A stretch of DNA of 58,957 bases from Candidatus Uhrbacteria bacterium CG10_big_fil_rev_8_21_14_0_10_48_16 (lineage in GTDB: Bacteria > Patescibacteriota > Patescibacteriia > UBA9934 > GWF2-40-263), in assembly GCA_002793515.1 (NCBI GenBank), contig PFEU01000015.1, positions 1 through 58,957 of the forward strand, written 5' to 3'. Below, in pieces: positions 3,118 through 43,492 of this stretch. A model generated the notes under the pieces. It made no database searches, was not told the origin of the DNA, and saw only the letters and a list, made by a program, of their open reading frames with translations. How positions within the stretch are numbered: position 1 is the stretch's first letter; each line of letters starts with the position of its first letter. Position numbers and translations under genes: made by a program.

Positions 3118-4341
3118 TTATTCACCGTACTCGGCAAGTGTTACTTCAATGTCGATCTGCTCTGTCCCGCGCAAAATAGTAATAGTAATGAGATCCCCCG
3201 GTCGATAGACCGAGATACGTTCTGCGAGTCCTTGGTCTTCCGAGAGAGTCTCACCATTAACGGCAATAATAATATCATCTTCTTGAAGTCCTGCTACATC
3301 GGCCGGAGATCCTGCAAAGACCCCGTCTTCTCCTGGTTGATCTCCTGAGACAATTAAAGCGCCGACTTCGTACATAGACGCTTGATCTCCCTCCTCCTGA
3401 GGGTCCACGAGAACATATCGGACGCCAAGCCAAGGACGTACGATGCGCCCATAGAGTTGAACATCTTCTACCGCCCGCTTTGCCTCATTAATCGGGATGG
3501 CAAATGCCACGGACTCCCCTTGAAAACTCACAGCCGTATTAATCCCGATCACTTCCCCCAGAAGATTAATCAATGGTCCTCCAGAATTTCCAGGATTAAT
3601 CGCGGCATCCGTTTGAATTGCCTGTTCAATCACCTCTGCATTATACGAATCCCCCGCGCTCACGCGACGATTGATTCCAGACACAACGCCTTTGGTCACC
3701 GTATTACGAAATTCCGATAAGGTATTCCCGATCGCAATCACGGTCTGTCCGATACGGATCGTATCTGAGTCGCTCAGCGTGACAATCGGGAATGCGTCTC
3801 CTTCCACACGAAGGACGGCAATGTCTTGCAAAGGATCAATATCAACAAGTTCCGCGGGAAGCTCATCTCCATCGTTTGTGACCACAAAGAAACTTACGCC
3901 TTCTTCATCCACCACATGACGGTTTGTGAGGAGATATCCATCTTCCGTCACAAAGAATCCTGTTCCACTACTGATTTCAATAAGCTCTGCGGACGATGCC
4001 TCGTCAAGTGGTTCAAACGGGTAGTAGCGATCTTGAAAAAGAAACCCCGCTTCCTGTTCAAGTTTCCCCCGCTCTTTTTTTACAACGATACTAACCACCG
4101 CTGGCGTCACACGCTCCACCACGGCGATACTCGCACTTTCATCTTCAATCAACTCAACAATACGAGACTCAACCGCCTCCGGACTCATACTTGTCTGAGA
4201 AGCACGAAGCCAGGAAAAAGACCCTCCCTGCGAGGTGAACACAAGGGTTGTGATGGCACCCGCCACAGAACCGACCACGGCAGAAATCGCAATGGTTATC
4301 ACAAAGAGAATGTGAGGAATTGAACGTTTTGTTTCTTCCAT
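3118..4341 (-). CDS. htrA: HtrA/DegP-like trypsin serine protease with PDZ domain
   Basis: N-terminal TM, catalytic motifs LTNRHVV, DIAVL and QTDAAINPGNSGGPL, and a C-terminal PDZ. Start moved to MEETKR (4341) to avoid overlapping nrdR. Confidence 0.92.
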   Translation of the reverse strand: MEETKRSIPHILFVITIAISAVVGSVAGAITTLVFTSQGGSFSWLRASQTSMSPEAVESRIVELIEDESASIAVVERVTPAVVSIVVKKERGKLEQEAGFLFQDRYYPFEPLDEASSAELIEISSGTGFFVTEDGYLLTNRHVVDEEGVSFFVVTNDGDELPAELVDIDPLQDIAVLRVEGDAFPIVTLSDSDTIRIGQTVIAIGNTLSEFRNTVTKGVVSGINRRVSAGDSYNAEVIEQAIQTDAAINPGNSGGPLINLLGEVIGINTAVSFQGESVAFAIPINEAKRAVEDVQLYGRIVRPWLGVRYVLVDPQEEGDQASMYEVGALIVSGDQPGEDGVFAGSPADVAGLQEDDIIIAVNGETLSEDQGLAERISVYRPGDLITITILRGTEQIDIEVTLAEYGE

Positions 4342-35926: not shown

Positions 35927-36031
35927 AGAAAAAAGGTTAAGTATTTCTCTAAAAATAGCATAAAATATCCATTTTGTCAATGAGAATCAGGGCTTTACGC
36001 AAGTGATACACCAATGTATCGTAGAGAAAGT

Positions 36032-37531
36032 ATGAACGAGACAATCCGCACATACGACGATCTCGAACGGCTCGTCAAAAAAACATACGCCTCACCGGAC
36101 ATTGAATCTCTCCGACACGCATTTGATTTGGCAGACAAGGCGCATGCAGGTGAAGTGCGTTTGACCGGTCATCCCGTCATCTCACATCCCCTTGCTGTTT
36201 CCTATCGACTCGCAGAAATGGGTCTTCATCTCAATGTCGTCATCGCTGGGCTCCTCCATGACGTAGTAGAAGATTCTGATGTCACGATTGAAGACCTAAA
36301 GAACGCCTTCGGAGAAGATGTTGCGTCTCTTGTAGAGAGTGTCACAAAGCTCAAGCACGGCATCAAATACCGAGGCGCAGAACGCTACGCAGAAAACATG
36401 CGAAAAATGTTCTTGGCAATGGCAAGCGATGTTCGAGTGGTATTCATGAAGTTCGCGGATCGTCTTCACAACCTCGAGACACTTTACGGACAACCAAAAA
36501 ATAAGCAGGAGCGGATCGCACGTGAATCACTCGAAATTTATGCGCCGATTGCTGGACGCTTAGGGATGAGTGAATTTAAAGGAGAGCTTGAAGATGGAGC
36601 ATTCGCCTACCTCCAGCCAAAAGAGTACGAGCGGATGAAAAACATCATGGATATCAAGGTGCGAGAAAAAGGAGCCTACGTCAGTCGCATCATCGATCAA
36701 GTCGAAAAACTTCTCGGAACAACAAGTGCGACCGACTTCCAAGTTCATGGCCGAATCAAACGTCTCTTCAGTCTTTTTAAGAAACTCAGAAAGTACCAAG
36801 GGGACCTCAGTAAGATTTATGATCTTATTGCCATCCGGATCATCGTCAGCGACGTCGAAGAGTGCTACATGGCCCTTGGACTGCTTCACCAAAAATGGCG
36901 TCCTGTACCGGGACGTATTAAAGACTACATCGCCCAGCCAAAACCAAACGGGTATCAATCTCTCCACACAACCGTCTTCACAGAAAATGGAGAGATCATA
37001 GAGTTCCAAATTCGAACGCTTGAAATGCATGAACTCGCTGAGTTCGGAGTTGCCGCTCACTGGCGCTACAAAGAAGGTTCGCGAAAAGCCGTGAAGAATA
37101 CCCGCTGGATGGAGGAGCTCGCGCAAATTCAGAAAGAACTCCAAACAAAAAAAGACTTCATGGAACAACTGGAGGTCATGAAGATTGATGTCTTCAAAGA
37201 TCGTATTTTTGTGTTTACTCCTCAGGGGAACGTTATCGATCTCCCAGAAGGAGCAACTCCCATCGATTTCGCCTATGCCATCCATACGGAAGTCGGAAAT
37301 AAATGTACCGCATCTCGCATCAATGAAGTCATGCGCAACCTCGACACCCCCCTACAATCAGGAGATATCGTCGAAGTGGTAACAGACAAGAATCGTCGTG
37401 GTCCAAACCCAGATTGGCTCAAATTCGCCAAGACACGCCACGCGCGAACGAAGATTAAAGATGCGACCAAGAGAACGGTCAAAGGATGGTTCGCAGAAGT
37501 CCTGAAAGGAAGAGAGAAAGCAAAGAAATAA
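36032..37531 (+). CDS. rel: RelA/SpoT family (p)ppGpp synthetase/hydrolase (HD + SYNTH + TGS, no ACT)
   Basis: LLHDVVED, KFADRLHN, PKPNGYQSLHT, EFQIRT, AAHWRYK and the TGS motif TPIDFAYAIHT. Confidence 0.95.
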   Translation: MNETIRTYDDLERLVKKTYASPDIESLRHAFDLADKAHAGEVRLTGHPVISHPLAVSYRLAEMGLHLNVVIAGLLHDVVEDSDVTIEDLKNAFGEDVASLVESVTKLKHGIKYRGAERYAENMRKMFLAMASDVRVVFMKFADRLHNLETLYGQPKNKQERIARESLEIYAPIAGRLGMSEFKGELEDGAFAYLQPKEYERMKNIMDIKVREKGAYVSRIIDQVEKLLGTTSATDFQVHGRIKRLFSLFKKLRKYQGDLSKIYDLIAIRIIVSDVEECYMALGLLHQKWRPVPGRIKDYIAQPKPNGYQSLHTTVFTENGEIIEFQIRTLEMHELAEFGVAAHWRYKEGSRKAVKNTRWMEELAQIQKELQTKKDFMEQLEVMKIDVFKDRIFVFTPQGNVIDLPEGATPIDFAYAIHTEVGNKCTASRINEVMRNLDTPLQSGDIVEVVTDKNRRGPNPDWLKFAKTRHARTKIKDATKRTVKGWFAEVLKGREKAKK

Positions 37532-37586
37532 TCAGATAAGATACCTATCAACGATGGTTATTCGAAAACAGTTCGTATAAATACGA

Positions 37587-37664
37587 GTTATATGAAATAT
37601 ACTTTTCCTTTTAAGGGCTAAACGCCCTTTCGCTTTTCTATTTTTAGGGCAAATTTGATTTTTC
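37587..37664 (+). repeat. Left arm of the long inverted repeat bounding cassette 1
   Basis: Core 37630-37664 (TCGCTTTTCTATTTTTAGGGCAAATTTGATTTTTC) is the exact reverse complement of 38632-38666. TATACTTTTCCTTTTA also matches the right arm. Confidence 0.9.
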
Positions 37665-37855
37665 TTTTTTATAGAGGGGAATATATGGCGTCCCGCCGTA
37701 TTCTCGGCGGGACGATTTTAATAAAAAAACCATTCATATTCGCTCAAACAATCGCTTGAAAAAATATGAATGGTGGGGAGCGAACAGCGTGTGACTGCTC
37801 GCTCCCCAGTGGTGACCGATCATTTTACGCGGATCGGTCGTACGCGACTCGCGTG

Positions 37856-38446
37856 CTACGAGTAGATGTCATCCGAGGGAGAGAGGAGGTACTTGAGCAG
37901 CAAGTCCCAGCGCTTGATACGCGGACACCTGCCGTCGAGCTCTTCACGCCTCTCCCGAGGTGCATTCCAGTCCTTGACTACCGCGCGCTCCTCGGGAGTG
38001 AGCACGGAACGGTCGAATTGTACCAAGAACCTGCTGTTGCACAAGAGCACCTGCGCGCCCTCAACAGAGAAAGGCGTCGGCCTGCTCTCGGACTCGTTGA
38101 AAGCGTCGAAGCAGGCCGAGGCGGGGTGGGAGTGGTGGTCACTGTCCGTGAGGACCGCGACGTACTTTGCACCCTCCTTCGCCGCGAGAAGCGCGAGGAA
38201 GATGCCGACCGGCATCTCCTTTCCCGCGAACCTCAAGCCCTCATCGGCAAGCGGATATCCGTATGCGGGCATCAGCAGGTCGACGAGGACGACATCGAAG
38301 AATCCTTCAGGGAAGTCCCCTTTACCACGAAGGATCGTTTGTCCCTCGCCGTAGCTGTCGGTGGTTACCAGGCTGTGCTCCCCATCGAGCTGCCTCCGGG
38401 CGGCGTCCTGGTGGATGGGGTTGTCGTCAATGACGAGGATTTTCAT
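37856..38446 (-). CDS. Receiver (REC)-like domain protein (GC3-rich)
   Basis: MKILVIDDN...FDVVLVDLLMP; AAGGAG SD; promoter TTGACA(38535-38530)-17-TATACT. Confidence 0.8.
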   Translation of the reverse strand: MKILVIDDNPIHQDAARRQLDGEHSLVTTDSYGEGQTILRGKGDFPEGFFDVVLVDLLMPAYGYPLADEGLRFAGKEMPVGIFLALLAAKEGAKYVAVLTDSDHHSHPASACFDAFNESESRPTPFSVEGAQVLLCNSRFLVQFDRSVLTPEERAVVKDWNAPRERREELDGRCPRIKRWDLLLKYLLSPSDDIYS

Positions 38447-38631
38447 GACTGTCTCCTTTCTAAAGAGCATGATCTCCCTCAGACCCATTCCGAGTTTGAA
38501 CAAAGCAGTATAGCATGGCTAATAGCTTTTGTCAATCGCTTTGCGCATTATTTCAACTAAAACAAGCCAAAAAGGTGTCTTGGCGGGGCGCAATTCACCC
38601 CTTCATTTCCCCTCTTGCGCCCCGCCAAAAC

Positions 38632-38704
38632 GAAAAATCAAATTTGCCCTAAAAATAGAAAAGCGACCCTAACGGGATAAAAGGAAAAGTATACATCACA
38701 TAAC
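38632..38704 (-). repeat. Right arm of the long inverted repeat bounding cassette 1
   Basis: Reverse complement of 37587-37664, apart from a variable internal mini-hairpin and a few substitutions near the outer end. Confidence 0.9.
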
Positions 38705-38827
38705 ACTGGACATGCGGTTCGGGCTTTCCCCGAAAGCCCTCACCCAAATTGAAAAACTCCGTTCTTTTTGATAAAATTGAATAAGGAAGCGGGTTTTTTC
38801 AACTTCGCATGTCCAGAAACGTTAAAT
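38698..38827 (+). other. attC-like recombination site 1 (130 bp)
   Basis: ACATAAC-A-CTGGACATGCG...CGCATGTCCAG-AAAC-GTTAAAT, an 11-bp perfect inverted repeat with inner hairpins. Confidence 0.75.
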
Positions 38828-39658
38828 GCCATTTGTTGCTGATGGCTCTTCAAGAACATAATCAGCCTTCTCAAATTTTGCCTTGTTTTCTTCCCCTAAC
38901 GACCTAGTTAAGTATTGGACAAAATTGTCAAAAATCTTTTTAGATTCACCGTCCAAGCCCTTATAAACATCTGACTGCTTAATATCACCAAAATTCCAAG
39001 AAAACTTCACGAGTAATTCTGGATTGTCCTTTATAAAGCTAATACAATCTCCCAGTTCAGACTTAGCAGTTCCCAAATCTTGCTGTAAAAGAGGCTTCGC
39101 CACTTTCAAATAATAAATGATAATTTTGTCCTGTTTATCCTCTACTTCTTTTTCCAAATGGCTTATTTTTTCATTAAAACTATTGTAATCAGAAAGCATT
39201 AAATAAACTTCAAGTAAATTGGCCAAGCTTCCAAAATCAGTCGGATCAATAACATAGATTTTTTCATAATACTTTTTGGCCCTAGCCCATGATTTTTGAC
39301 TAATATGCCTAAGCCCCTCCTCTTTAAATTTTTCTAGCCGATTTTCTGCAACTTGTAAAAAAGCAAAGTAGCCAACAAAAATCGCAAAAACCAAAGTTAC
39401 AAAATGACTTAGAATTGAGATATAGCGGTCTATTAAAAACTCTTCAGCGTAATTTAAAACCATAAAATAAGCCAAAACAGAGAAAAGAAAAAAAGGCAGA
39501 ACAAACTTCCAATAACCTTTAACAATCAAAAGCTGTGCAAAAAATCTTAAAAAGAGTTTTTTACCAGGAGCTTTCAATGCAGCCCCAAGAGCTACACCAA
39601 CAGCCAAAACCAATAATAACGCTAACCAATTTTCCGTTAGAAACTCCAACATATTCAA
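38822..39658 (-). CDS. AT-rich membrane protein with TPR-like C-terminal region (cassette 2)
   Basis: Three to four TMs, then helical repeats (WARAKKYYEKIYVIDPTDFGSLANLLEVY). Its stop codon lies within the attC core. Confidence 0.75.
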   Translation of the reverse strand: MNMLEFLTENWLALLLVLAVGVALGAALKAPGKKLFLRFFAQLLIVKGYWKFVLPFFLFSVLAYFMVLNYAEEFLIDRYISILSHFVTLVFAIFVGYFAFLQVAENRLEKFKEEGLRHISQKSWARAKKYYEKIYVIDPTDFGSLANLLEVYLMLSDYNSFNEKISHLEKEVEDKQDKIIIYYLKVAKPLLQQDLGTAKSELGDCISFIKDNPELLVKFSWNFGDIKQSDVYKGLDGESKKIFDNFVQYLTRSLGEENKAKFEKADYVLEEPSATNGI

Positions 39659-39706
39659 GATTATAAATCAACTAATGTATAGCACATAAACGCAGCAAAA
39701 AACAGC

Positions 39707-39830
39707 ACTTAACAAGGTATAAGCGGTTACGTTCAGTCGTTTCACTCCTTCGCTTCACCCATATTTGCGGGTGATCCGCCTTCGGCGTATTATATCACCC
39801 GCAGACATCGCTTATACCTAGACGTTAGCC
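39707..39830 (+). other. attC-like recombination site 2 (124 bp)
   Basis: ACTTAAC-A-AGGTATAAGCG...CGCTTATACCT-AGAC-GTTAGCC, with inner stems TGCGGGTGAT/ATCACCCGCA and CGCC-TTC-GGCG. Confidence 0.78.
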
Positions 39831-39849
39831 AAAATAGTAATAATTTTCC

Positions 39850-40293
39850 ATGCTAGTAAAAAAAGAAATTTTGGAATGCGTAGCTTTTATCCTTTATAAG
39901 GATGACAAGGAACAATTTCATTATGTTGGCACCGCTTTTTTCCTCGGTGAGTATGTTGAAGATATAAATAAGACATTCACTTATATCGTCACAGCAAAGC
40001 ATGTAATCGCCGGCATCAAGACTAAGCAAAATGACGGTAACGTTTATTTACGAATGAATGCAAAAACAGGAAGCACAAAATTAATTTTATTAAATCTTGA
40101 AGATTGGCAATTTCACGAAGACGACCCTTACGCAGATGCAGCCGTATTCTTTGGCCCTCCAGATAACGGTGAAACTGAATATAAATGTTTCCCCTTCAGT
40201 GGGCTTGCCAATGTTACAATTCTTGAGAAAGAAGAAATAGGCATAGGAGATGAGATATGCCTCACGGGGTTATTTATAAATCATTTCCAATAA
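39850..40293 (+). pseudogene. Truncated trypsin-like serine peptidase (cassette 3)
   Basis: GTAFFL, IVTAKHV (His) and DAAVF (Asp) are present, but the ORF stops before any GxSG catalytic-Ser motif. Confidence 0.6.
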
Positions 40294-40387
40294 ACTGCAA
40301 AATCAAAGCAGGGATAACAATAAGGTACACTTGTTTCTGAGCTGAAAACATAGAGTCTAAAGCAAAAATAGGGCCGAAGCCCTGTTT

Positions 40388-41251
40388 TTAAAATCCACTT
40401 AAACGGTCTAGAAGGTCGAGAAGTTCTTCTCGTGAGTAAAAGGCGATCGAGATGGCTCCTTTACCATGAGACTCATTGATCACGACCTTTGTTCCGAGAA
40501 TTTCACGAAGTCGTTTCTCATGTGCAAGAAGGTTTGGGTCTTTGTGTGCGTTTCCTTTTGCCGAGCTCTTTCTTGGCGAGCTGGTCACGCGAGCTTCCGC
40601 TTCACGGACACTCACTCCCCCATTCAACATCTGTTCAAATAAGTCTTCACGGCGTTCTTCATCCGATTCAGCTAAGAGGGTTCGCGCGTGGGACTTTGTG
40701 ATCTTTCCCTCACGCAACGCTTGGAGCATCACTTCAGGAAGATCAAGGAGTCTCAATGTGTTCGCCACGTTTGATCGACTCTTTCCGACACGTTTTCCTA
40801 CCTCCTCTTGGGTCAGGTTAAACTCATCCACAAGAGCCTTATACGCAATCGCCTCTTCAAATGCATTCAGGTCCTGTCGTTGAATGTTCTCGATCAGAGC
40901 CAACTCGAGCTTTAATTGCTCGCTCGCCTCACGCACAATCACCGGAACGGTTTTAAGACCGAGTGTTCGAGATGCACGCAATCGACGTTCTCCTGCAATC
41001 AACTCATAACCCGTTCCAACACGTGTCGCCACAAGTGGCTGTAAAATTCCATGCTCTTTAATGGAAGAGATGAGATCTTCCAGATCTGCTGGAGAAAAAT
41101 GATGTCGAGGCTGACGAGGGTTTTCAACAATCTCATCAACCCCAATATCCAAGATCTGAGTTCGTGCCTCGGGAAGCACCTGTTCAGTCATGGTTTGTTT
41201 TTGTGGAATCAAGGAACCGAGTCCTCTTCCTAATGCGGATTTTGTACTCAT
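40388..41251 (-). CDS. parB: Chromosome partitioning protein ParB
   Basis: LGRGLGSLI, NPRQPR, IAGERRLRA, ENIQRQDLN and an HTH. Confidence 0.96.
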   Translation of the reverse strand: MSTKSALGRGLGSLIPQKQTMTEQVLPEARTQILDIGVDEIVENPRQPRHHFSPADLEDLISSIKEHGILQPLVATRVGTGYELIAGERRLRASRTLGLKTVPVIVREASEQLKLELALIENIQRQDLNAFEEAIAYKALVDEFNLTQEEVGKRVGKSRSNVANTLRLLDLPEVMLQALREGKITKSHARTLLAESDEERREDLFEQMLNGGVSVREAEARVTSSPRKSSAKGNAHKDPNLLAHEKRLREILGTKVVINESHGKGAISIAFYSREELLDLLDRLSGF

Positions 41252-42851: not shown

Positions 42852-43095
42852 CACACAAAAACACCCCAGCGTTGCTGGAGTGTTTTTGGTGCCGCGGGCG
42901 GGAATATTGAATTTGAGGCAAATCCAATATTGCACTCGTTCGCTCGGTACAAAATAGAAGTCGACAAAAAATGACTTCTATTTTGTACACTCACTCTCTC
43001 CTGCATCGAACCCGGGTGCGCGTTCTCATCCCGCACCACGGCACACAAAAACACTCCAGCATTGCTGGAGTGTTTTTGGTGCCGCGGGCGGGAAT
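42852..43095. repeat. 54-bp direct repeat (42852-42905 and 43042-43095) of the tRNA-Leu 3' end plus downstream hairpin
   Basis: The two copies are 190 bp apart and differ at 2 positions. Confidence 0.85.
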
Positions 43096-43163
43096 CGAAC
43101 CCGCACATGGTTGCCCATACAGGATTTTGAGTCCTGCGCGTCTACCGGTTCCGCCACCGCGGC
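43077..43163 (-). tRNA. tRNA-Leu(CAA)
   Basis: GCCGCGG...CAGGA-CTCAAAA-TCCTG, long variable arm, GGTTCGATTCC and CCA end; 87 nt. Confidence 0.95.
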
Positions 43164-43204
43164 ATGGAGCGAATCTTCAGACAAGCCGTCTTTAAAAAAG
43201 ATGA

Positions 43205-43285
43205 GATACGCTGTGCTGGAAGGCGGAAAGCTCGTGAAATGTAGGTAATCCTACATTGAACGAGTTTCCGACTGAAGCACAAGTA
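43205..43285. repeat. Palindromic ~81-bp element, copy 1, nested in an outer 19-bp IR (43182-43200/43291-43309)
   Basis: Homologous to 43411-43492 in inverted orientation. Confidence 0.8.
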
Positions 43286-43307
43286 GATCGCTTTTTTAAA
43301 GACGGCT

Positions 43308-43384
43308 TGGTAGCTGGAGGGGGATTCGAACCCCCGACCTCGGGCTTATGAGTCCCACGCTCTAACCAACTGAGCTATCCAGCT
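43308..43384 (-). tRNA. tRNA with CAT anticodon (elongator Met or Ile2)
   Basis: AGCTGGA...TGGGA-CTCATAA-GCCCG...GGTTCGAATCC...TCCAGCT-A-CCA; 77 nt. Confidence 0.9.
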
Positions 43385-43410
43385 ATGTAAAACGCCCAGG
43401 ATTGGCCAGC

Positions 43411-43492
43411 TACTTGCTCTTCAGTCGGAAACTCACTCGATGTAGAATTTACCTACATCTCCTGAGCTTTCCTCCTTCCAGAGCGGCATATC
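43411..43492. repeat. Palindromic ~82-bp element, copy 2, nested in an imperfect outer IR (43386-43516)
   Basis: Inverted homologue of 43205-43285 with compensatory stem changes. Confidence 0.8.

Follow-up and report, generated by a model that had tools for sequence, protein, structure and literature searches.

A probable remnant of an integron-like gene-capture platform between rel and parB in a Candidatus Uhrbacteria genome

Between rel, a RelA/SpoT-family gene, and parB, contig PFEU01000015.1 of Candidatus Uhrbacteria bacterium CG10_big_fil_rev_8_21_14_0_10_48_16 (GenBank assembly GCA_002793515.1) carries 2856 bp with three open reading frames (ORFs). What kind of element occupies this interval, and what could have moved its genes? 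The whole contig of 58,957 nt was analyzed and is referred to here as the window; it is contig C22 of a 0.99-Mb genome (G000) that is 96% complete in 29 contigs. A preliminary description, made from the letters alone, had proposed an integron-like cassette array lacking an integrase, i.e. a CALIN, which in the available text of the IntegronFinder papers denotes a cluster of attC sites without an integrase (PMC4889954, PMC9024848). Our analysis indicates that the interval likely represents what is left of an integron-like platform for gene capture, of a kind found in bacteria of the candidate phyla radiation (CPR; Patescibacteria), composed of an attI-like site, two complete cassettes and a truncated third.

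The interval contains two attC-like hairpins, S1 (38693–38832) and S2 (39702–39835), which lie 870 bp apart and both on the + strand. In S1 the R'' core ACATAAC (38698–38704) and the R' core GTTAAAT (38821–38827) enclose 11-bp arms at 38706–38716 and 38806–38816; in S2 the corresponding elements are ACTTAAC (39707–39713), GTTAGCC (39824–39830) and arms at 39715–39725 and 39809–39819. All 29 contigs were scanned on both strands for the strict pattern TAAC, 1 nt, 11-nt arm, returning arm, 4 nt, GTTA, allowing up to two arm mismatches. Just two matches were obtained in the whole genome, at 38701–38824 and 39710–39827, with perfect arms in both. The identical geometry that had been reported for the two sites was thereby confirmed, but the accompanying description of their sequences as different needs correction. 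S1 and S2 share internal motifs with each other and with a family of sites in related genomes: ACAxC before the core, GCGGTT after the 5' arm, TCACCCAWATT inside, and AxACxTCGC before the 3' arm. Against the attC core consensus RYYYAAC...GTTRRRY, as quoted in the part of PMC5027507 available to us, the cores of S1 matched at 6/7 and 7/7 positions and those of S2 at 7/7 and 6/7, respectively. Single-strand folding of both sites was better than that of shuffled sequences (z −3.3 to −4.9, the latter for S1). A search against Rfam gave no match at gathering thresholds and two chance-level, irrelevant matches at E≤1.

The site family was delineated in 41 genomes, i.e. the window genome and 40 relatives (denoted by G numbers), among which a DNA search found pieces of S1, S2 and the repeats around the first ORF (gene 1) recurring many times in a few genomes. 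A covariance model, R1, was built from 16 aligned sites collected by geometry from six other genomes, with the window sites excluded. R1 matched both window sites at full length on the + strand, with 80.3 bits for S1 (E 3.7e-17) and 64.8 bits for S2 (E 2.1e-13), and gave matches in 14 of the 41 genomes, with the largest counts in G030 (12), G026 (11), and G015 and G010 (7 each). The stem of these sites is kept by structure: compensatory changes were present in 8 of 11 arm pairs among the 16 seed sites, and 10 of 11 arm pairs changed on both sides in an alignment of 68 sites from 10 genomes. In the latter, which was fitted to the model and therefore favours its pairing figures, 90.8% of cells paired compared to 72.7% in shuffles (none of 500 reached 90.8%) and 23–49% in slid controls, and R-box cells were 93% paired. 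Family sites ranged from 57 to 238 nt (median 120); RYYYAAC was matched at 6/7 or better in 54 of 59 and GTTRRRY in 48 of 59. Every strict-geometry site had a 1-nt versus 4-nt internal loop plus a 5'-arm bulge, features that do not map onto the extrahelical bases and central spacer described for attC. Within the window genome R1 also detected two further weak sites, at C15:86024–86090 and C15:86614–86710 (31.5 and 28 bits), both of them preceded by a gene of the same orientation, and this region (G000:C15:85100–86710; loci L028 and L037) constitutes a second small array. By eye, a SET-domain-like gene that is broken across two frames comes next after the C15 array.

The sites have a direction, which in the family is mostly that of the genes. 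In 45 of 50 inter-site units of the family the longest ORF ran with the site; the five exceptions include window gene 2. With filters off, the minus strand of S1 scored 12.3 bits against 80.3 on the + strand, and that of S2 gave no match. The polarity of the window array, described earlier as uncertain, is therefore +, from rel towards parB. The opposite assignment, with S1 serving as the own attC of gene 2, was considered and rejected on the same scores and on the orientation of family sites with their genes. As for the genes themselves, the ORF list agreed with the initial account in placing genes 1 and 2 on the strand opposite to gene 3.

If cassettes move as circles that are cut at G|TT, then whatever follows a GTT is already part of the next cassette and is expected to be complementary to the R'' flank of that cassette's own site. 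For 43 consecutive site pairs, the 9 nt before AAC were compared with the 9 nt after the preceding GTT. Complementarity averaged 4.86/9 for the preceding GTT flank, compared to 3.67 for the site's own 3' flank and 3.63 for random pairs (Wilcoxon p 0.0017; permutation p < 1e-4). For cassette 2 of the window the first bases paired with the cassette's own R'' flank at 6/9 positions versus 2/9 for the neighbouring flank. A related observation in the preliminary description, that each of the three units begins with a GTT core matching its own AAC core at 6 of 7 positions, holds numerically for all three, and in units 1 and 2 it reflects this family-wide signal. The match of unit 3 is probably due to chance, since its AAC core (40312–40318) lies in no model-detected site and gene 3 is truncated. 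For the same reasons a third site at 40312–40318, which the preliminary description took as the end of the array, was rejected, R1 with filters off giving no match between 39835 and parB. Furthermore, contigs at least 90% alike in four public groundwater/aquifer runs diverged from the window exactly at 37587 and 38824, with at least five different continuations after the GTTA of S1; these assembled contigs possibly derive from other organisms and demonstrate different neighbours at the core rather than excision.

These data bear on an alternative explanation, that S1 and S2 are structured repeats without recombination activity, such as terminators, repetitive extragenic palindromic (REP)-like elements or miniature inverted-repeat transposable elements (MITEs), lying by chance between accessory genes. 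Both sites are indeed intergenic hairpins, the genome contains other palindromes of 117–130 nt, and cassette 1 has MITE-like terminal inverted repeats. Against this, the sites show conserved AAC/GTT cores, strict polarity with the genes and linkage to a recombinase (see below), the boundary signature falls at G|TT, and contigs diverge exactly at the cores. A terminator scan listed neither hairpin, and there is no T-run after S1 or S2. Reading of the sequence revealed no target-site duplication at the ends of cassette 1, and its cargo is a gene, with the same ends occurring around different genes precisely at site boundaries. We therefore regard this explanation as extremely improbable. The claim that folded recombination sites of attC type bound gene cassettes in the window is supported, and the family membership of the sites, the array architecture in relatives and the boundary signature of the cassettes may be taken as shown.

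The relatives also point to an enzyme. In G026 the array is directly preceded by a gene for a 270-aa tyrosine recombinase (G026:C29:18157–18966). Full-length proteins at least 45% identical to it were found in 9 of 41 genomes, counting G026 itself (the other eight at 45–66%), all of which have sites, and fragments occur in G022 and G003. In all six cases where array and recombinase share a contig (G026, G030, G016, G015, G017 and G034), the gene is divergent from the array, the first GTT lies 113–197 nt from its start, and sites and genes point away from it. Phylum-wide, 42 of 401 sampled genomes (about 10%) contained a homologue at E ≤ 1e-45. The nine array-type recombinases are 270–290 aa long and are distinct from a separate Xer gene, 30–38% identical, that is present in each of the 41 genomes.

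Sequence comparisons place the array-linked enzyme near Xer while retaining similarity to integron integrases. The G026 protein, the one of the nine scanned with the NCBIfam XerA model (NF040815), passed it at 224.3 bits (cut-off 220) and failed the integron-integrase model TIGR02249 at 213.1 bits (cut-off 265). Its best structure matches were XerA (PDB 4a8e, 1.9e-44) and VchIntIA (PDB 2a3v, 1.1e-40), the alignment with the latter falling into two blocks with 23 query residues opposite 66 of IntI. When aligned with plasmid IntI1, six array-linked enzymes all lacked ∼40 residues of the IntI-specific region but kept the catalytic R, K, H-x-x-R, H and Y. They end in ..SPL, as do IntI1 and VchIntIA, which the host Xer does not. 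According to Messier and Roy (2001), as cited in the part of PMC9668308 that we consulted, the additional domain specific to IntI lies around patch III.

Could the window nevertheless be an ordinary CALIN, with canonical attC sites that were moved by a classical IntI of some donor, the Xer-like enzyme of the relatives being incidental? The architecture is identical to that of an integron, the cores fit RYYYAAC/GTTRRRY, the lengths of 57–238 nt overlap those of attC, and among plasmid-borne matches to the CPR recombinase IntI1 is the most frequent (30% identity over 99% of the CPR protein). However, no protein exceeded the IntI model cut-off in any of six genomes (window genome and five array-bearing relatives), the IntI insertion is missing from all nine array-associated recombinases, and the conserved internal sequence and fixed 1/4-nt loop are absent from canonical attC descriptions. 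R1 found none of five class-1 attC sites, its best match having an E of 1.9 and lying on the wrong strand, and its use as a stand-in for a canonical attC model was rejected on that result. We thus consider membership in the classical system unlikely. Given these R1 results and an enzyme that is not a canonical IntI, the proposed CALIN at the rel–parB junction stands by architecture, with two same-strand sites and no integrase nearby, and appears to fall by family membership. We read the locus as a relic, probably decaying and without its enzyme, of an integron-like system of Xer type.

A different objection is that no dedicated enzyme is needed. Pdif-type modules are flanked by short double-stranded 11-6-11 sites in alternating orientation, and the housekeeping Xer, encoded on contig C4 of the window genome, might move the units in the manner of such modules or of XerCD acting on folded CTX-phage DNA. 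There is indeed a resemblance to dif both in the paired hairpin base and in the attI junction, with inverted half-sites ..CGYATA.. on either side of a short spacer, and S1 and S2 have been kept intact in a genome with just a Xer gene. Yet family sites are hairpins of 57–238 nt in direct orientation, and only the attI junction resembles a short double-stranded site. Moreover, every genome has a Xer gene while sites occur in 14 of 41; all nine genomes with the second, array-type recombinase have sites, and its gene stands at the array head in six of six linked cases. The array-linked enzyme resembles XerA, XerC and XerD (NF040815; PDB 4a8e, 1a0p) in its best structure match, the passed XerA model, its two-domain size and its dif-like half-sites, but it differs from these dimer resolvases in being a second, accessory copy (42/401 genomes), additional to the ubiquitous Xer, and in that it heads cassette arrays and ends in ..SPL. 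The action of Xer on folded single-stranded phage DNA is described in the available part of PMC3442271 and constitutes the nearest precedent for how the CPR enzyme could work: a Xer-type enzyme that has no IntI domain exchanges a single pair of strands, one partner being a folded single-stranded hairpin and the other a double-stranded site. There, however, a phage genome enters at the host dif, with neither cassette arrays nor a dedicated enzyme and attI. We judge an exclusive role of the housekeeping Xer to be distinctly improbable.

The favoured interpretation, an enzyme-less relic of a CPR platform with a dedicated recombinase, finds further support at the left edge of the array. The attI-like region (37532–37589, + strand) comprises a core, TTCGTATAAATACGA|GTT at 37572–37589, with the crossover presumably falling between G37587 and T37588, and the upstream motifs TTATTCGAA (37558–37566) and ATCAGATAAG (37532–37541). 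It aligns with the recombinase-proximal sites of nine relatives, which have T-Y-C-R-Y-A-T-A-N3-A-C-K-A|GTT in common at 105–199 nt from the gene start; the two upstream motifs (TTATYCGAA and a CAGATA-type half-site) align with the relatives as well. The consensus TYCRYATANNNACKAGTT occurred once in the whole genome, at the start of cassette 1, and in none of 20 shuffles, for a pattern that was written after the window sequence was known and was therefore not blind. R1 gave a weak match here to both flanks of the site model (11.3 bits). The attI-like region takes up the full 58 bp from the rel stop codon to the GTT; the recombinase gene has thus been lost together with its promoter.

The rest of the genome does not supply them. 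Its only PF00589 match is the housekeeping Xer on C4, and there is no tyrosine recombinase in the window, where the absence of intI had already been noted. An IntI-type recombinase elsewhere in the genome, for which a search had been proposed, was not found either, the best TIGR02249 score being 92.8 bits against the cut-off of 265. As no cognate recombinase was found in the genome, the array is most likely frozen and decaying.

Several observations weigh against this interpretation. Homologue searches found no array-type recombinase in the window genome, at 96% completeness in 29 contigs, and a full-length copy is likewise missing from four more of the 14 site-bearing genomes (G006, G010, G018 and G021, besides G000). 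That the array-linked recombinases act on the family sites is suggested by architecture only, and the compared genomes are kin, so that counts across them are not independent. The attI pattern, as stated above, was not blind. In the empty rel–parB junctions of G006, G002 and G003 (36–43 bp) there is no attI-like sequence; the block was thus not built by insertion of cassettes into a pre-existing site. Two of the three window genes (1 and 2) run against the array, compared to 45 of 50 family units with it, and the orientation of gene 1 depends on the assembly as deposited: in the public runs cassette 1 is broken internally into short contigs, and among the pieces listed no identical contig bridges 37622–37758 or 38661–38712, a gap that is no evidence in either direction. 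Lastly, homologues of genes 1–3 elsewhere do not lie beside detectable sites (0 R1 matches in 9 loci).

In the mechanism that we propose for the family by analogy with integrons, a dedicated 270-aa Xer/IntI-like tyrosine recombinase would bind the base of the hairpin, presumably folded from a single strand in vivo, at two half-sites, a paired R box (..TCGYATAAC / GTTATRCGA..) and an L box (..GTATATGCG / CGCATATAC..). One strand would then be exchanged at the conserved AAC/GTT triplet, the predicted position of cleavage, with attI or another site, and cassettes would enter and leave as circles. Orientation would be fixed by a strand asymmetry, namely an internal loop that separates the boxes and is always 1 nt versus 4 nt, together with the large 5'-arm bulge with GGTTC...TCACCCAAATT. 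Cassette 1 represents a subtype in which the site is extended by inverted repeats of ∼90 nt. In the window, any reshuffling would require an enzyme supplied in trans.

Comparison with known systems shows how far the analogy extends. Like sedentary chromosomal integrons and CALINs (PMC4889954, PMC9024848), the CPR arrays have a divergent tyrosine recombinase gene with an adjoining attI; mostly single-gene, co-oriented and promoterless-looking cassettes; an imperfect palindrome with RYYYAAC...GTTRRRY closing each cassette; a crossover signature at G|TT; and integrase-less arrays scattered in genomes. They differ from sedentary integrons in a recombinase of ∼270 aa without the ∼40-residue IntI-specific insertion, in sites with a fixed 1-nt/4-nt loop and conserved internal motifs instead of an unpaired central spacer and extrahelical bases, and in a cassette subtype with 90-nt stem extensions. 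Archaeal integrons, as presented in the part of Ghaly et al. 2022 seen by us (PMC9668308), are similar in occurring outside the classical bacterial hosts and in arrays far outnumbering integrases (539 attC sites but 6 IntIs in 75 genomes); only IntI-domain proteins were counted there, whereas the array-linked CPR enzyme lacks that domain. The IntegronFinder 2.0 text, so far as it was available, contains no mention of CPR or Patescibacteria (PMC9024848). In the accessible portions of two further papers, Smyshlyaev et al. name a Xer-related recombinase subgroup, ‘Cand’, without giving a function (PMC8138268), and Escudero et al. argue that IntI evolved smoothly from a classical recombinase (PMC4792948). 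Full-text literature searches, supplements not included, found no paper describing CPR cassette arrays that depend on a recombinase of Xer type.

A broader proposal follows the same lines, and we feel that its chances are about even: CPR bacteria would run a working integron analogue whose recombinase never gained, or lost, the IntI-specific domain, with strand choice residing in the fixed loop and bulge of the site, and with relics that can be reshuffled in trans. Such a system would be either an ancestral intermediate between Xer and integrons or an independent invention. Integron integrases are defined, in software and literature, by the extra domain reported to be necessary for activity, which is why arrays that lack one enter surveys as orphan CALINs. 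Should an ordinary Xer-like enzyme serve attC-like hairpins in about a tenth of sampled Patescibacteria, the capture of gene cassettes would have a greater age or a wider distribution than has been assumed, natural intermediates would allow a direct test of whether integrons arose from Xer recombinases, and there would be a concrete mechanism for accessory-gene flow in ultra-small, host-dependent bacteria. To this picture the window would add a platform that has lost its enzyme but not its attI, a split hairpin of 300 nt that marks one cassette subtype, and cassette exchange across families of the order (gene 1, discussed below).

Cassette 1 (37588–38821, + strand) begins with the TT that follows the attI G, ends on the first base of the S1 GTT and is thus bounded by GTT cores. 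Its ends are inverted repeats of 83 and 78 nt belonging to leaders of ∼90 nt, with 40 nt at 98% identity between them: leader(+) at 37590–37681, found by repeat search and matched by an nhmmer profile at 37592–37681 (E 1e-17), and leader(−) at 38606–38698 on the minus strand, with a GC hairpin at 38577–38631 before it. The leaders abut both boundaries of the cassette. The same inverted pair surrounds individual cassettes of G026, G018 and G015, and G010 has it in part. Its + copy begins right after G|TT, and its − copy extends as far as the R'' flank of the site that belongs to the cassette. A composite of hairpin and leader precedes sites in G026, G018, G010, G006 and G030. Joined in a circle, the leaders would extend the hairpin to ∼300 nt. 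At its inner end the leader(+) (window 37655–37715, with copies in G026 and G029) finishes in a strong Shine-Dalgarno-like GAGGGG(A), with ATG or GTG 6–8 nt further on and then a short non-conserved ORF or hairpin; this may be a translation or expression signal of the cassette subtype.

Most of cassette 1 is taken up by a GC-rich, self-contained module on the minus strand (37693–38534; GC up to 0.63) with promoter, gene 1 and hairpin terminators. A promoter-like TTGACA-17-TATACT (38535→38507) matches at 11 of 12 positions. The module is shared beyond the window: 37813–38534 is 89% identical at the nucleotide level to G074:C22, and its flanks alone are 91% and 78% identical to G022:C9, where they surround a different ORF. 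Metagenome contigs join 37846 to 38449, and the 3' flank occurs in just 2 of 150 other genomes of the order. Across the three copies (window 37693–38534; G022:C9:3051–3556, locus L023; G074:C22:854–1569, locus L047), a promoter/5' region of ∼85 nt and a four-hairpin 3' region of ∼155 nt are kept between genera (78–91% nucleotide identity) while the ORF differs. In G022 and G074 the unit adjoins, by eye, a gene for a TrmB-like regulator and is not in a cassette. It looks like a second, unrelated gene-swapping unit.

Gene 1 (37856–38446, − strand) encodes 196 aa from ATG 38446, or 215 aa from TTG 38503, and is inverted relative to the array. The protein has weak receiver-domain similarity (Pfam Response_reg, E 0.0012, below the cut-off). 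Homologues occur in 17 of 151 genomes of the order, the window genome included; that of G074, which belongs to a different family of the order, has 91% protein identity, with no site or leader nearby. The inversion suggests that gene 1 was either flipped by recombination between the inverted leaders or introduced in a later replacement of the cassette content.

Cassette 2 (38822–39824, + strand) runs from the GTT of S1 to the G of the S2 GTT. Gene 2 (38822–39658, − strand) is AT-rich, encodes a membrane protein of 278 aa and runs opposite to the array; its stop codon (38822–38824) was correctly said to sit inside the core site, here the R' core GTTAAAT of S1. The protein shows tetratricopeptide repeat (TPR)-like similarity in sub-threshold matches only, and one homologue was found among 150 other genomes of the order (G042, 37%), with no site beside it. 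Cassette 3 (39825–40360, + strand) starts at the GTT of S2 and is truncated, without a terminal site. Its gene 3 (39850–40293, + strand; 147 aa, AT-rich) is co-oriented with the array and corresponds to a trypsin-like serine protease of which only the N-terminal half is left: its homologues in G014 and G117 are 296 and 319 aa long, align only over their first ∼147–175 residues and have the GxSGSP serine motif beyond that part. The remainder of cassette 3, up to the parB terminator, was lost in a deletion. Searches of the cassette proteins against PADLOC and NCBIfam gave weak matches only, those of the gene 3 fragment in PADLOC being to PDC-S45 (E 5e-7) and LmuA (E 8e-5). GC content was 0.31–0.40 in cassettes 2 and 3 compared to ∼0.47 in the flanks, in agreement with the AT-richness reported earlier for these two cassettes.

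On the left the array is flanked by rel (36014–37531, + strand; Pfam HD_4, RelA_SpoT and TGS) and on the right by parB with its terminator hairpin (40370–41251, − strand; Pfam ParB_N, HTH_ParB and ParB_C), of which the gene occupies 40388–41251 and the hairpin, found by the terminator scan, 40370–40383. The DNA search of 40 relatives showed that the rel–parB neighbourhood is kept, and an equivalent hairpin closes the empty junctions of relatives. In nine relatives of the same genus or family the gap measures 36–1940 bp, against 2856 bp here; it is 36–43 bp in G006, G002 and G003, with unrelated genes in other relatives. The junction is therefore a variable interval, in keeping with the initial account, which an invariant one would have contradicted. 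No family sites were seen at the junctions of relatives (junction sequences; model scan for G007). The junctions (L005–L013, L025) have the appearance of a general hotspot for accessory genes: by eye, there is an apparent ribbon-helix-helix (RHH) antitoxin with a RelE/ParE-type toxin and GC-rich minus-strand genes in G007, a membrane protein gene in G001, G004 and G005, and a methyltransferase-like gene in G008.

Other palindromes were noted in passing. A relaxed scan of the genome for AAC...GTT palindromes returned 110 matches, compared to 8–38 in shuffles, mostly from other palindrome families. The genome contains palindromes of 117–130 nt with perfect arms of 16–19 bp (C6:107009–107133, C25:39708–39825, C21:2168–2285, C29:23529–23658 and C6:88639–88763); two pairs of these (C6:107009–107133 with C25, and C21 with C29) have internal motifs in common, and the site model matches none. 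In G030 and G015 a second palindrome type of 76–128 nt, with arms CGGCGGCTA/TAGCCGCCG and likewise ending in AAC...GTT, adjoins family sites and attI (locus L018 4999–5126, 7174–7301 and 12258–12385; locus L030 ∼3300–3460; and the G015 attI region, locus L031), and may be a double or alternative site. In the window itself, three long inverted repeats (arms of 16–19 bp, spans of 128–189 nt) at 42873–43434 are interleaved with tRNA genes at 43080–43163 and 43311–43384.

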